Positions 6,232 through 23,430 of a stretch of 44,680 nt of DNA are shown here, piece after piece. Below the pieces are notes generated by a model. That model had not been told where the DNA came from, ran no database searches, and saw nothing but the letters and a program-made list of their open reading frames with translations. How positions within the stretch are numbered: the stretch's first letter is position 1; every line of letters starts with the position of its first letter. Source of the stretch: a virus; UHGV virus genome UHGV-0024713. One strand, 5' to 3'. The translations under genes were made by a program, and so were the position numbers.

Positions 6232-6237
6232 ACCACA

Positions 6238-6262
6238 AGCCCGGTTAATTCCGGGCTTTTTA
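6238..6262 (+). terminator. Intrinsic terminator after the lysis cassette
   Basis: AGCCCGG-ttaatt-CCGGGCT followed by T5. Confidence 0.65.
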
Positions 6263-6266
6263 TTGC

Positions 6267-6305
6267 TTGACATGCAACCAACTATCAGACCATACTGCGA
6301 CCAAT
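6267..6305 (+). promoter_or_regulatory. sigma70-like promoter (TTGACA-18-CATACT) overlapped by two reverse-oriented motif copies
   Basis: TTGACA 6267-6272; TGCAACCAAC 6273-6282; CATACT 6291-6296; TGCGACCAAT 6296-6305. Confidence 0.45.
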
Positions 6306-6579: not shown

Positions 6580-6639
6580 CGCACCGCAGTGTGGGCCGTG
6601 GTATATTGTCCCCGGTCCTCTCAATCAGGAAGATATACA

Positions 6640-7782
6640 ATGCACCCGCAAACTAAAATCACCGACGAGCAATTGATCGCCGAGTTGCAATACGGCACTA
6701 CCGCGAAAGAGATTGCGAAGAAGTACGGCCTTTCCCTACGAAACGTCTACATGCGCAAAGCCCGCCTGTCGAAGAAAGGTATTGGTCACGGTAACGATGC
6801 CGTAATCCGTAAGCGCGTTGCCGATGGCTTCGGCGTTAAGCGCGTATCCGCCCTGGTGCGCGGCAATGGCGAAGAGGTCATGTCGTGGGTTATCACTGAG
6901 CAGGACAAGGAGCGCCAGCTTGAAGCAATGCGCGCCGTTGTCGAAGGTATGAACAGCGAAATCACCCCGGCAGCACCAGTAAGCGCCCCGCCAGTCCCGA
7001 TCCAGGCACTTGACCTACTCAACCTGTACACCGTGTCAGACTTCCACCTGGGCATGTTGGCATGGGGTGAGGAGACTGGCGAGGACTGGGATATGGCAAT
7101 CGCTGAAGACCTGTTTTACCGCTGGTTTGTCGAAGCCTTCGCCCGCGCACCGGACGCAGGCACTGCCGTAATCAATATCCTCGGTGATATGGCGCATTTT
7201 GATAGCCTCGATGCCGTCACCCCAGCTAGTGGTCACATCCTGGACGCAGATACCCGATACCAGAAGTTGGTCCGCTACATGATTCGCATGGTGCGCAACG
7301 TGGTAGACCTGGCGCTGCAAAAACACCACAAAATCAAACTTCTAATCGTCCAGGGGAATCATGACGAGTCGGGCATGATTTGGCTGGCTGAAATGTTCAA
7401 TACTCTGTATGAGAACGAGCCGCGCGTCGATGTGGATACGTCGCCGGATGTCTACAAAATGGTGCAACACGGCAAGACCACGCTATTCTTCCACCACGGG
7501 CACAAAGCGCGCTTCGATGCTATCGAAACAGTCATGATTTCTAAATTCAGACAGGCTTTCGGGTCCAGCGAATACAGCTACGCGCATGTAGGCCACTTGC
7601 ACCACCAGAAGATTGTAGAATCCCGCAACATGATTGTTGAACAGCACAGGACGCTAGCAGCGAAAGACGCCTACGCCAGTCGTGGCGGTTGGATGTCCGG
7701 TCGCAGCGCCAACGTCATTACCTACAGCGCCAACTACGGCGAAGTAGCGCGCTTAACCATTAGCCCGGAAATGTTGAAGTAA
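6640..7782 (+). CDS. Metallophosphoesterase (calcineurin-like) with N-terminal helix-turn-helix
   Basis: Start chosen at internal ATG with AGGAAG RBS; HTH-like TAKEIAKKYGLSLRNVYMRK; phosphoesterase motifs SDFHLG, GDMAHFD, QGNHDE. Confidence 0.55.
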   Translation: MHPQTKITDEQLIAELQYGTTAKEIAKKYGLSLRNVYMRKARLSKKGIGHGNDAVIRKRVADGFGVKRVSALVRGNGEEVMSWVITEQDKERQLEAMRAVVEGMNSEITPAAPVSAPPVPIQALDLLNLYTVSDFHLGMLAWGEETGEDWDMAIAEDLFYRWFVEAFARAPDAGTAVINILGDMAHFDSLDAVTPASGHILDADTRYQKLVRYMIRMVRNVVDLALQKHHKIKLLIVQGNHDESGMIWLAEMFNTLYENEPRVDVDTSPDVYKMVQHGKTTLFFHHGHKARFDAIETVMISKFRQAFGSSEYSYAHVGHLHHQKIVESRNMIVEQHRTLAAKDAYASRGGWMSGRSANVITYSANYGEVARLTISPEMLK

Positions 7783-7803
7783 CGGCAGCCAGTAAGCCAC
7801 CCA

Positions 7804-7828
7804 GCCCGCCGATTTGGTGGGCTTTTTT
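7804..7828 (+). terminator. Intrinsic terminator; TATAAT hexamer just downstream at 7837-7842
   Basis: GCCCGCC-gattt-GGTGGGC (one G-U pair in RNA) followed by T6. Confidence 0.5.
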
Positions 7829-7912
7829 GTGCCTGTTATAATCCACCTTAGATGGCAGGGCCGTCTCCTATGTTGCCGATGGTCGGCGCATATGCACAAA
7901 AGGGCTTATATC

Positions 7913-8464
7913 ATGGCAGAAATCAAAGTTAAGGGCCGACGCGCCAAACTGGACGGACGAGTAGCAGTAACCCCGCGCCGTAAACCAGGCGAGCAAACCG
8001 AGCATACCAATCTCGGACCTGAAATCGAGTACGGAAAGCGCCGTAAAGGCGGCAAATGTGGACGCCCTACTGACTACCGATCCGTTTACTGCGACCAGCT
8101 TCGCCGCTATTTTGCCGACGCAGACGCCTGGCAGGTAAACTACTCCGATAAAGGCGCTGCACAAGTAATCCCCCGCAACAAAATGCCAACCTTCGGTCGA
8201 TTTGCCGCGGAAATCGGCGTGGGCGTAGCTTGCCTGTATCGCTGGGCGCGTGCGCATGAGGAGTTCGCCGAGGCGATGGCGGACGCTATGGAATTGCAGA
8301 AAACTTTCCTGATGGAAGCTGGCGGCGTGACCATCGCGGCAGGCTTCGCCACCTTCCTGCTTAAAGCCAACCACGGCGTCCGGGACGATGTTCCACTGGA
8401 TGACGACGAAGATGATAACGGCGACGTCGTTGTCGAACCTACCGGCAAAGGTCAGGGTGATTAA
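7913..8464 (+). CDS. Terminase small subunit (putative)
   Basis: 183-aa basic protein with HTH-like FGRFAAEIGVGVACLYRWARAHEEF and acidic C-terminus; stop overlaps the large-subunit start (TAATG). Confidence 0.5.
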   Translation: MAEIKVKGRRAKLDGRVAVTPRRKPGEQTEHTNLGPEIEYGKRRKGGKCGRPTDYRSVYCDQLRRYFADADAWQVNYSDKGAAQVIPRNKMPTFGRFAAEIGVGVACLYRWARAHEEFAEAMADAMELQKTFLMEAGGVTIAAGFATFLLKANHGVRDDVPLDDDEDDNGDVVVEPTGKGQGD

Positions 8465-9849
8465 TGCGTAACTATGCGGCAGAACATCGCGCCCTTGAAC
8501 GTGCGATCGCAAAGCGCAACCGACCACCACGCCCGACACGCGTTGCGCAGGCGGTGCGTCTTTACCAGCCTGATTGCCTACCGCACCAGGTCGAACTACT
8601 GCGGGACACGAAGACTAAAATCCTCGGCCTGTGTTCCGGCTTCGGCGGCGGCAAGTCATGGGTCGCAGCCCGTAAGGTAATCCAGCTTTTAACCCTGAAC
8701 CCGGGTCATGATGGCATCGTTACAGAACCGACTATTCCCCTCCTGGTTAAAATCATGTATCCGGAATTGGAAAAGGCATTCGACGAGGCTGGCTTCCGGT
8801 GGAAGTTCAATAAGCAGGACAAGATTTATAGCGTGCTGGTGAAAGGCAAATGGACCCGAGTTATCTGTGAGTCAATGGAGAACTACACACGCCTTATCGG
8901 GGTTAACGCCGCATGGATTGTTGCCGACGAATTTGACACCACGAAGCAAGACGTCGCGATGGCGGCATATCACAAATTGCTTGGTCGTCTGCGTGCTGGC
9001 TTGGTACGACAGTTCGTCATCGTGTCCACGCCTGAAGGCTACCGGGCGATGTATCAGATTTTCGAGGTGGAGAAGGATAGCCAGAAACGTTTGATCCGGG
9101 CGAAGACCACGGACAACCACCATTTACCGGCAGACTTTATCGACACGCTGCGCAGTCAGTACCCGGCGAACCTGATCGACGCGTACCTGAACGGCCTGTT
9201 TGTTAACCTTACGTCGGGCGCGGTGTACAAGATGTTTAACCGGGATGAGAACGCCAGCACCGAAGAAGTGCAGCCGGAAGACACACTGATTATCGGTATG
9301 GACTTTAACGTCACGAAAATGGCGGCGGTCGTGTACGTCAGACGGCAGCGCACTACCGAGAACAAGGAGTTCCGCGACGAGATTCACGCCGTGGATGAAT
9401 TCGTGGACTTGTTTGATACCCCGGCGATGATTGAGGCGATCGAGGAGCGCTACCCCGATCATTGTGCTGCCGGTCGGGTCGTCGTTTACCCGGATAGCAG
9501 CGGCAAGTCTCGCAAGACGGTCAACGCATCGTCGTCAGATATCGCGCAACTGGAAGACGCGGGCTTCGAGGTGGAATACGACAGCGTTAACCCACCTGTG
9601 AAAGACAGATTGATCGCGATGAATACGATGATGTGCAACTCGAAGGGTGTGCGCCAGTATTTTGTCAACCTGGATAAATGCCCTACACTAGCGAAATGTC
9701 TGGAACAGCAGGTTTACGACCTGAAGAAAGGCGAGCCGGATAAAACCGCCGGTGTGGACCACATGAACGATGCCGCGGGCTACCCTATTGCGCACTTGTT
9801 CCCTGTGATTCGTCCAATCGCCGTTGTTCCTACCGTAGATTTCTACTAA
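8464..9849 (+). CDS. Terminase large subunit
   Basis: Walker A CSGFGGGKS, Walker B WIVADEFD, C-terminal nuclease region (IIGMDFN...); canonical position before portal. Confidence 0.9.
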   Translation: MRNYAAEHRALERAIAKRNRPPRPTRVAQAVRLYQPDCLPHQVELLRDTKTKILGLCSGFGGGKSWVAARKVIQLLTLNPGHDGIVTEPTIPLLVKIMYPELEKAFDEAGFRWKFNKQDKIYSVLVKGKWTRVICESMENYTRLIGVNAAWIVADEFDTTKQDVAMAAYHKLLGRLRAGLVRQFVIVSTPEGYRAMYQIFEVEKDSQKRLIRAKTTDNHHLPADFIDTLRSQYPANLIDAYLNGLFVNLTSGAVYKMFNRDENASTEEVQPEDTLIIGMDFNVTKMAAVVYVRRQRTTENKEFRDEIHAVDEFVDLFDTPAMIEAIEERYPDHCAAGRVVVYPDSSGKSRKTVNASSSDIAQLEDAGFEVEYDSVNPPVKDRLIAMNTMMCNSKGVRQYFVNLDKCPTLAKCLEQQVYDLKKGEPDKTAGVDHMNDAAGYPIAHLFPVIRPIAVVPTVDFY

Positions 9850-22830: not shown

Positions 22831-23430
22831 ATGGCGCAAGGTACAATCACACTAACTAAAGGAAGTAAGACCGTCACGGGTGTGGGGACGGCGTTCCTGA
22901 GCGAGATCGGGAAGGTCCGCGTATTTACCCGCATCGACGGCAACGACTACACCGGAAAAATTGCAGCATTCAACTCTAACACCGTCATCACCCTGGCGGA
23001 TAACTGGGCAGGTCCGACAAAAGCCGGTGCGGCTTATGAGCTAATCGAAGCGCACGACCCGCGGTCAAACGAATGGCCTTATTACTGGCACATGCAATTG
23101 CAAGGCGGCGGAGACGTGCAGTTGGCTTTCCGGTCCGAGGAATTGCAGTTTGGTAACGGTTACGGTCAGAACATCGCGGACGGCCCGAACGCCGAAACGA
23201 AACAGTTCCCCGTGCAATTCATCGGGCTGACTACTGACAAGTGGTGCAACCCCAAACTGGTTTACAACTTCCTTCGCGGGCACTTCGTCAAGCCGTTTGT
23301 CGTCACCGCGCCGGATGGCGAAACAGGTTTATTCGTGGTCGAGCGTTCGAGCTTGTCGTACACCGACAACGGGCATAACACGGCAACGGTGTCCGCCACC
23401 CTTAAGACTGCTATTGGATTCGTAAGATGA
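22831..23430 (+). CDS. Minor tail protein M-like, with an extra N-terminal domain
   Basis: C-terminal part carries FGNGYGQ...G.NA..K pattern like lambda gpM (FGDGYSQ...); N-terminal 75 aa resemble the tail-fibre N-terminus at 30308. Confidence 0.65.
   Translation: MAQGTITLTKGSKTVTGVGTAFLSEIGKVRVFTRIDGNDYTGKIAAFNSNTVITLADNWAGPTKAGAAYELIEAHDPRSNEWPYYWHMQLQGGGDVQLAFRSEELQFGNGYGQNIADGPNAETKQFPVQFIGLTTDKWCNPKLVYNFLRGHFVKPFVVTAPDGETGLFVVERSSLSYTDNGHNTATVSATLKTAIGFVR

Follow-up and report, generated by a model that had tools for sequence, protein, structure and literature searches.

A phage metallophosphoesterase fused to a helix-turn-helix domain resembles Mre11/SbcD-class DNA nucleases

Introduction

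Coliphage T1 gp16 (ST16, YP_003929) is the named member of a phage protein family to which a gene of the virus genome UHGV-0024713 belongs. We analysed this gene in the whole stretch of DNA available (44,680 nucleotides, hereafter the window), where positions 6,640 to 7,782 encode a calcineurin-like metallophosphoesterase with an N-terminal helix-turn-helix (HTH) segment beside the packaging genes. The family is already known and catalogued, and the copy in the window is nearly identical to deposited ones. T1 gp16, its orthologs in Drexlerviridae, Guernseyvirinae and Dhillonvirus, PHROG 704 and the pVOG entry VOG9929 represent the same family, being full-length homologs, HTH included, of the same length and with the same motifs. 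In T1 an intrinsic terminator directly follows the gene, as a terminator-like hairpin does in the window, and T1 gp16 differs in position only: it precedes the lysis cassette in T1, whereas in the window the gene follows the lysis cassette and precedes the gene for the small terminase subunit (TerS).

Four more distant systems bear comparison with this locus. Mre11/SbcD nucleases have the same two-metal core and the motif variants SDxHLG, GDxxH, GNHD and GHxH. Their identity to the window protein is 12-18%, and the latter lacks their capping domain and a Rad50/SbcC gene and carries an N-terminal HTH and a beta-hairpin module. The stand-alone bacterial enzyme Nuclease MPE/PdeM (6nvo; TIGR04123, ligase-associated DNA damage response endonuclease) needs no Rad50 partner to cut DNA; work of the Shuman laboratory reportedly established it as a Mn2+-dependent endonuclease acting on single-stranded DNA. 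It differs in its size of about 216 amino acids (aa), in having no HTH and in being encoded in a ligase-helicase repair cluster. In lambda, the metallophosphoesterase gene ninI adjoins ninH, which encodes a small protein that binds DNA; both lie in the nin region, after NinG and before the late genes. The window protein, however, lacks the PPP-type motifs of NinI, shows much lower fold similarity to that type and gave no profile similarity to NinI. The genes for HNH proteins of the HK97 gp74 type resemble the window gene in encoding a nuclease-type protein and in immediately preceding the terminase genes where the genome map ends; the fold of these proteins is unrelated, however, this adjacency is not conserved in the HTH-metallophosphoesterase family, and a terminator-like hairpin precedes TerS here.

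Here, we show that the fused architecture and an intact active site are kept across a very large family. We propose, with a probability of roughly 55%, that its members are stand-alone Mre11/SbcD-class DNA phosphodiesterases that are tethered by their own HTH and act in phage DNA metabolism.

Domain architecture and active site

All five motifs of the two-metal site (DxH, GD, GNH(D/E), H and GHxH) are present in the window protein, as D134-x-H136, G182-D183, G239-N240-H241-D242, H286 and G318-H319-x-H321. The original prediction, made from the sequence of the window, had recognised SDFHLG (residues 133-138), GDMAHFD (182-188) and QGNHDE (238-243); these are joined by HHGH (285-288) and GHLHH (318-322). 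The five motifs are invariant or more than 90% conserved among relatives at 32-55% identity. Across 82 relatives at 32-47% identity, D134, H136, G182, D183, T194, N240, H241, H286, G318 and H321 are invariant, and H186, D188, D202, R206, D242, R262, H285, H288 and H319 are conserved in more than 90%, with H319 invariant in an alignment of 112 sequences. Loss of the metal ligands on careful alignment, set beforehand as the finding that would overturn the prediction, was thus not seen in these 82 relatives, and judged from the sequences the presence of the motifs is far beyond chance.

The Pfam models scored below their gathering thresholds on the window protein (Metallophos_2, 22.8 bits against a cut-off of 27; Metallophos, 20.1 against 21.5), and only 21 of the 82 relatives matched Metallophos at E≤0.01, because the family is too divergent for these two models. 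Its assignment to the calcineurin-like metallophosphoesterase superfamily (PF00149/PF12850) therefore rests on the motifs and on the fold of the predicted structure, and the core of the AlphaFold2 model does adopt the metallophosphoesterase fold. The model was built from 112 sequences and reached a mean predicted local distance difference test (pLDDT) score of 82.7 and a predicted template modelling (pTM) score of 0.70.

Preceding the core, the model places three HTH helices at residues 9-18, 22-29 and 33-44 (pLDDT 80-85), followed by a middle module made of strands 64-73 and 79-88 and helix 90-107, then a linker and the core at approximately 123-380. Scanned alone against the Pfam HTH models, the window protein gave sub-threshold matches only (GerE, E=0.041). 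When the 82 relatives were scanned singly, HTH_1 was matched by 16, Sigma70_r4_2 by 12 (best 1.5e-9), HTH_50 by 11, HTH_8 by 10 and GerE by 6 (best 2.4e-8), and the top match of the family profile in the PDB was GerE 1fse, weak at E=0.015. The model helices and the matches in relatives bear out the HTH-like segment of the original prediction, and the HTH itself is well supported; its subtype, LuxR/GerE/sigma-70 region 4, is putative. That prediction had also called the fusion non-standard and had asked whether relatives carry it at the same position. The fusion proved to be the norm: at least 60 residues lie N-terminal to the conserved Trp83 in 99% of 141 sequences (the query and 140 diverse representatives). 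Because it is kept across such a large family, the fusion is a defining architecture rather than a peculiarity of this phage. The second half of that question had a different answer, as position varies by lineage.

Two near-invariant stretches specific to the family were also observed, VTPxSxHxLDxDxR (7216-7257, residues 193-206) and EQHRTLAxxDAYAxRGG (7639-7689, residues 334-350). Both lie outside the classical metallophosphoesterase motifs, in loops that the model predicts with the lowest confidence, and could serve in substrate or partner binding.

Comparison with nucleases and phosphatases

The original prediction left the choice between phosphatase and nuclease to structure, and structural comparison now favours the Mre11/SbcD-type nuclease side. 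The best matches to the model were Mre11/SbcD proteins (for example T. maritima Mre11, 3qg5, and S. aureus SbcD, 7dog). These were followed by the small subunits of DNA polymerases delta and D (13.0-13.9), MJ0936 (13.9), further Mre11/SbcD entries, and LpxH, Vps29 and YfcE (12.7-13.1), with PPP-type protein phosphatases reaching only 8.5-9.3. An independent Foldseek search placed M. jannaschii Mre11-DNA complexes at the top.

The motifs point in the same direction as the closest fold, their variants being of the nuclease type (SDxHLG, GDxxH/GDxFD, GNHD and GHxH). Set against E. coli SbcD, the window protein reads VSDFHLG for TSDWHLG, LGDMAHFD for AGDVFD, QGNHDE for AGNHDS and VGHLH for LGHIH. 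The histidine of GDxxH, His186, is nearly invariant in the family at position +3, a spacing that we take to be that of the GDLFH motif of Mre11. By contrast, the PPP signatures GDxHG, GDxVDRG and GNHE, which lambda NinI carries as GDLHG, GDLVDRG and GNHE, were not found in the window protein, which has GNHD in place of GNHE. The only metallophosphoesterase chains that the family profile reached in the PDB at E≤10 were Thermotoga SbcD, Thermotoga Mre11 and the stand-alone Nuclease MPE (6nvo/6nvp); each match is individually insignificant, and all three chain types are DNA nucleases. Profile matches to Nuclease MPE/PdeM fall around motif III and are likewise not significant (E=0.11 and 1.3). When the family profile was compared with one sequence each for E. 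coli SbcD and lambda NinI, only short motif matches emerged (probabilities of 3% and 0.5%, respectively). A phmmer search of PDB sequences with the query returned spurious repeat-protein matches only, and PADLOC gave no match.

From these comparisons, we infer that DNA is the probable substrate. One observation weighs against this assignment: the fold-score margin over small non-nuclease phosphodiesterases is modest, which makes an Mre11/SbcD-class DNA nuclease the best-supported reading and not a proven one. Nor is the protein an Mre11/SbcD ortholog, since no C-terminal capping domain follows the phosphoesterase core in the AlphaFold2 model, and no Rad50/SbcC-type partner is annotated in the genome of the close relative SM_S22 or occurs among the neighbouring genes across 59 groups of relatives.

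In the proposed mechanism, the core would act as a two-metal, probably Mn2+-dependent, phosphodiesterase with exonuclease and/or endonuclease activity on DNA. The LuxR/sigma-r4-type HTH, together with the beta-hairpin and helix module, would hold the core on DNA and would stand in for the capping domain and the Rad50/SbcC clamp of cellular Mre11/SbcD. Its job may be to trim or cut DNA ends, hairpins or branches in recombination-dependent replication and concatemer processing and/or to break DNA down to nucleotides that feed salvage. A salvage role would fit because genes for deoxynucleoside monophosphate (dNMP) kinase and polynucleotide kinase recur as neighbours. More generally, a role in DNA metabolism is supported by recurrent neighbours of the DNA-metabolism and nin types (in Bonnellvirus, mEp021, T1-like phages and a Pseudomonas prophage; dNMP kinase, single-stranded DNA-binding protein (SSB) and NinG). 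In the phage of the window, the gene would be the last of a transcription unit that carries the lysis genes and would lie outside the terminase operon.

Family size, distribution and expression

With clusters formed at 50% identity, an exhaustive HMMER search retrieved 4651 cluster representatives at E≤1e-3, of which 1133 also passed E≤1e-30. Almost all matches were 350-450 aa long and covered close to the entire query in the alignment. By tblastn, the gene was found in 2055 of 50,697 cultured phage records (about 4%), including, by organism name, Escherichia (560), Klebsiella (468), Salmonella (373) and Vibrio (254), along with Campylobacter, Rhodobacter, Flavobacterium and others. Many Alpha-, Beta- and Gammaproteobacteria also carry homologs on large contigs of their chromosomes; the single such locus that we annotated belongs to a lambdoid prophage of Pseudomonas fluorescens. 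The gene is near-universal in Drexlerviridae (T1-like), Dhillonvirus and the Jersey-like Guernseyvirinae and is common in proteobacterial prophages. Its persistence in 508 of 522 Drexlerviridae (PMC13164509) is as expected for a core function.

The window protein matches PHROG 704, 'DNA repair exonuclease', over its full length (E=5.2e-160; residues 5-380 aligned to positions 2-390 of the 390-position profile). GenBank names include 'metallophosphoesterase', 'calcineurin-like phosphoesterase', 'winged helix-turn-helix domain-containing protein' and even 'oxidoreductase' and 'DNA polymerase II'. Such database names are transferred annotations; we found no functional or essentiality experiment for any member in the literature on the family, and a term search of CRISPRi-ART and transposon papers for these phage groups and this gene gave nothing. 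In the Metis paper, the name calcineurin-like phosphoesterase refers to a defence protein of bacteria rather than to a phage gene.

With the 1143 bp of the gene as query, megablast gave 179 matches among phage records. The best of them (93-95% identity, full length) were all Dhillonvirus siphophages of E. coli, Shigella and Sodalis, namely SM_S22, welsh, PaulFeyerabend, HK578 and SO-1, and the deposited PaulFeyerabend protein is 99.2% identical to that of the window. Judged from these matches and from a gene order that agrees with that of a complete Dhillonvirus genome, the window is a Dhillonvirus genome. An alternative GTG start at 6589 would give a longer protein; the ATG at 6640 is preferred because relatives at 97-99% identity also have 380 aa, with alignments that begin at residue 1. 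The gene product exists and is expressed: the 380-aa ortholog (42.8 kDa) of phage EE09 was seen by mass spectrometry in lysates, with three peptides and 11% coverage, and is thus made during infection (PMC10673088).

Position of the gene in other lineages

The position of the gene differs between lineages. In T1, gp16 (45% identity over residues 4-379) follows the helicase, Dam and small genes, precedes the lysis cassette and lies 15-33 kb from the terminase genes, with an annotated terminator of its own. Other T1-like phages share this layout, with helicase, VRR-NUC and Dam as neighbours. The ortholog of Jerseyvirus LPSE1 occupies a small island amid tail genes, that of the T7-like Bonnellvirus mellemsur lies between exonuclease/endonuclease and polynucleotide kinase genes, and that of the temperate phage mEp021 lies between replication genes and the replicative helicase. 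In the Pseudomonas fluorescens prophage, the order is NinB, NinG, two small open reading frames (ORFs), HTH-metallophosphoesterase, one ORF, holin, TerS and the large terminase subunit gene (TerL), which puts the gene where lambda has ninH-ninI.

All Dhillonviruses carry the gene directly upstream of TerS and TerL. Of 64 IMG/VR relatives, a biased sample in that these were the matches closest to this phage, 38 likewise have a same-strand large terminase no more than 5 kb downstream, and the terminases concerned are of four unrelated Pfam types (Terminase_6, Terminase_3, TerL_ATPase/nuclease and GpA). At first sight this linkage suggests a functional link, yet the sample is biased and the annotated genomes of other lineages break it: T1, Jerseyvirus, Bonnellvirus and mEp021 lack the linkage to terminase genes.

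Neighbours were clustered for 160 loci, which formed 59 groups at 70% protein identity. The most recurrent were Phage_lysozyme endolysins (17 groups), dNMP kinase (8), integrase (8), NinG (6), GH108 endolysin (5), SSB (4) and dATP/dGTP diphosphohydrolase (4). No partner gene was conserved across the 59 groups, and the immediate downstream ORF is variable and non-homologous between lineages. Collectively, these loci place the gene close to the lysis genes, where an early or DNA-metabolism (nin-like) block ends, abutting whatever module follows, with adjacency to the packaging genes specific to some lineages.

The locus in the window

The window has the order holins, endolysin, two or three small ORFs, HTH-metallophosphoesterase, TerS and TerL (Table 1). 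TerS and TerL do follow the gene directly, as the original prediction had stated. That prediction had also treated the position as unusual, and here it fared less well, given that the adjacency belongs to particular lineages and that a terminator-like hairpin and a promoter-like element intervene.

Table 1 Features of the HTH-metallophosphoesterase locus, with positions numbered along the window
Feature	Position	Strand	Description
Terminator-like hairpin, upstream	6237..6258	+	Within region 6237..6296
Sigma-70-like match TTGACA-18-CATACT	6267..6296	+	Best match of its kind in the region
Shine-Dalgarno-like AGGAAG	6627..6632	+	7 nucleotides 5' of ATG; seen in the sequence directly
HTH-metallophosphoesterase coding sequence	6640..7782	+	380 aa plus stop; ATG 6640, stop 7780-7782; T1 gp16 ortholog, PHROG 704 member
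Three-helix HTH, putative LuxR/GerE/sigma-70 region 4 type	6664..6771	+	Residues ~9-44
Middle module (predicted)	6829..6960	+	Residues ~64-107; two long beta strands and a helix; near-invariant G77 and W83
Metallophosphoesterase catalytic core	7006..7779	+	Residues ~123-380; motifs I-V: D134/H136, D183 (+H186), N240/H241, H286, H319/H321
Intrinsic-terminator-like hairpin	7803..7829	+	Stem of 9 bp, 6 of them G-C, and then TTTTTT; just 3' of the stop codon
Extended -10-like element TGTTATAAT, ahead of TerS	7834..7842	+	4 nucleotides after the hairpin; noted by eye, no call by the scan tool
Small terminase subunit (TerS)	7913..8464	+	Context
Large terminase subunit (TerL)	8464..9849	+	Terminase_6N/6C with its own RNaseH-like nuclease domain; context

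The hairpin downstream of the gene is kept in all six aligned Dhillonvirus loci with an invariant T-run. The sole difference is a C/T change in the left arm in three of the six, which turns a G-C pair into a G-T pair. The element TGTTATAAT is identical in all five aligned Dhillonvirus loci that reach that far. This conserved pair of terminator and promoter-like element suggests that the gene ends a transcription unit and that the terminase operon starts afresh, so that 7803-7842 looks like the boundary between a lysis/middle unit and the late structural operon. Upstream, 6237-6296 may mark the start of a short unit of two small ORFs and the HTH-metallophosphoesterase gene; the evidence for a promoter there is weak because promoter matches arise at chance frequency.

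In two of the six Dhillonvirus loci (L006, 5648-5860, and L009), an extra helix-rich ORF of 70 aa, which is not in the window, lies between the gene and the terminator, its ATG overlapping the stop codon of the gene (ATGA). Many other lineages have a small (55-100 aa), translationally coupled ORF directly downstream, and these ORFs are not homologous between lineages; the window has no such ORF. For the Dhillonvirus EE09, a cos site with a 10-nucleotide 5' overhang, ATCTTAAGGG, has been reported (PMC10673088). The window contains only one copy of ATCTTAAGGG with one mismatch, at 23399-23408 on the minus strand, far from the gene and at chance level. Dhillonviruses also encode Ksap1, a 74-aa trigger of the KpAvs2 defence system, between methyltransferase and kinase/phosphatase genes (PMC11564622). 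A Ksap1 homolog should thus be expected in the minus-strand early region of the window; the 'phosphatase' next to Ksap1 is not the HTH-metallophosphoesterase.

Alternative functions

The place of the gene directly 5' of TerS and TerL, here and in all Dhillonviruses, together with the terminases of four Pfam types downstream of the IMG/VR relatives, could point to a packaging accessory nuclease. By analogy with the HNH protein gp74 of HK97, the HTH would recognise pac or cos, and the core would help terminase to make or trim the initiating cut. We consider this unlikely, given that the conserved terminator and promoter-like element separate the gene from TerS, that the T1 ortholog with its own terminator lies many kilobases from the terminase genes, and that the Jerseyvirus, Bonnellvirus and mEp021 orthologs reside among tail, DNA-metabolism and replication genes. 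In addition, TerL here already has an RNaseH-like nuclease domain, the IMG/VR sample is skewed to relatives of this phage, and a gene that ends an early or lysis block will abut any packaging module that follows. An outside chance may also be given to a sequence-directed DNA-maturation nuclease, which would work with whichever terminase follows, either cutting or trimming replicated phage DNA at or close to the site where packaging begins or removing branches in front of the motor. If so, it would be a metallophosphoesterase-fold counterpart of the HNH proteins needed by HK97-like terminases and the first stand-alone Mre11-like enzyme to be targeted by its own DNA-binding domain and not by Rad50.

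The other two alternatives assign the core a substrate other than DNA. As a regulator, the protein would use its HTH as a late-gene transcription factor, placed like lambda Q or Mu C immediately ahead of late or lysis genes, and its core to hydrolyse a nucleotide signal or cap in the manner of CpdA or ApaH. This is improbable in our view: no specific CpdA, ApaH or LpxH family match was obtained in Pfam, NCBIfam or PADLOC, nucleases head both fold searches, and in Bonnellvirus and mEp021 the gene lies within DNA-metabolism blocks and not before late genes; a core gene kept across phage families would, moreover, be atypical of counter-defence genes. We regard as least probable a DNA-tethered Ser/Thr/Tyr protein phosphatase, a fused counterpart of lambda ninH, which encodes a small DNA-binding protein, and ninI, which encodes the lambda phosphatase. 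The Pseudomonas prophage gene does occupy the ninH-ninI place, and NinI and the window protein are both metallophosphoesterases, but the PPP-type motifs and fold that distinguish NinI set the two apart.

Should the family indeed consist of self-targeting, Rad50-free Mre11-like nucleases, it would offer a compact new model of how a metallophosphoesterase nuclease engages DNA, and it could help to explain how these phages process DNA or degrade that of the host. For the window, a better annotation would be an Mre11/SbcD-like nuclease with an N-terminal HTH, rather than a protein phosphatase or a terminase component. Although the gene itself will not surprise a specialist, it is widely conserved in well-used groups of enterobacterial siphophages and makes a reasonable target for a first biochemical or genetic study.

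Homing elements at related loci

Two observations concern mobile elements at loci of relatives. The large terminase ORF of one relative (L026, 10483-12771) is 762 aa long, compared with about 430-495 aa, and contains a GIY-YIG domain, which points to a homing endonuclease that has been fused with the terminase gene or has inserted into it. HNH homing-endonuclease genes adjoin the HTH-metallophosphoesterase gene itself in several unrelated lineages, including EC3-1 and NTEC3 (Kagunavirus), mEp021, Vibrio phage 98E28-4 and T1 (loci L089, L093 and L175), and in two Kagunavirus records the HNH gene partly underlies the match to the HTH-metallophosphoesterase. This recurrence fits the idea that homing elements use the gene as a conserved target.
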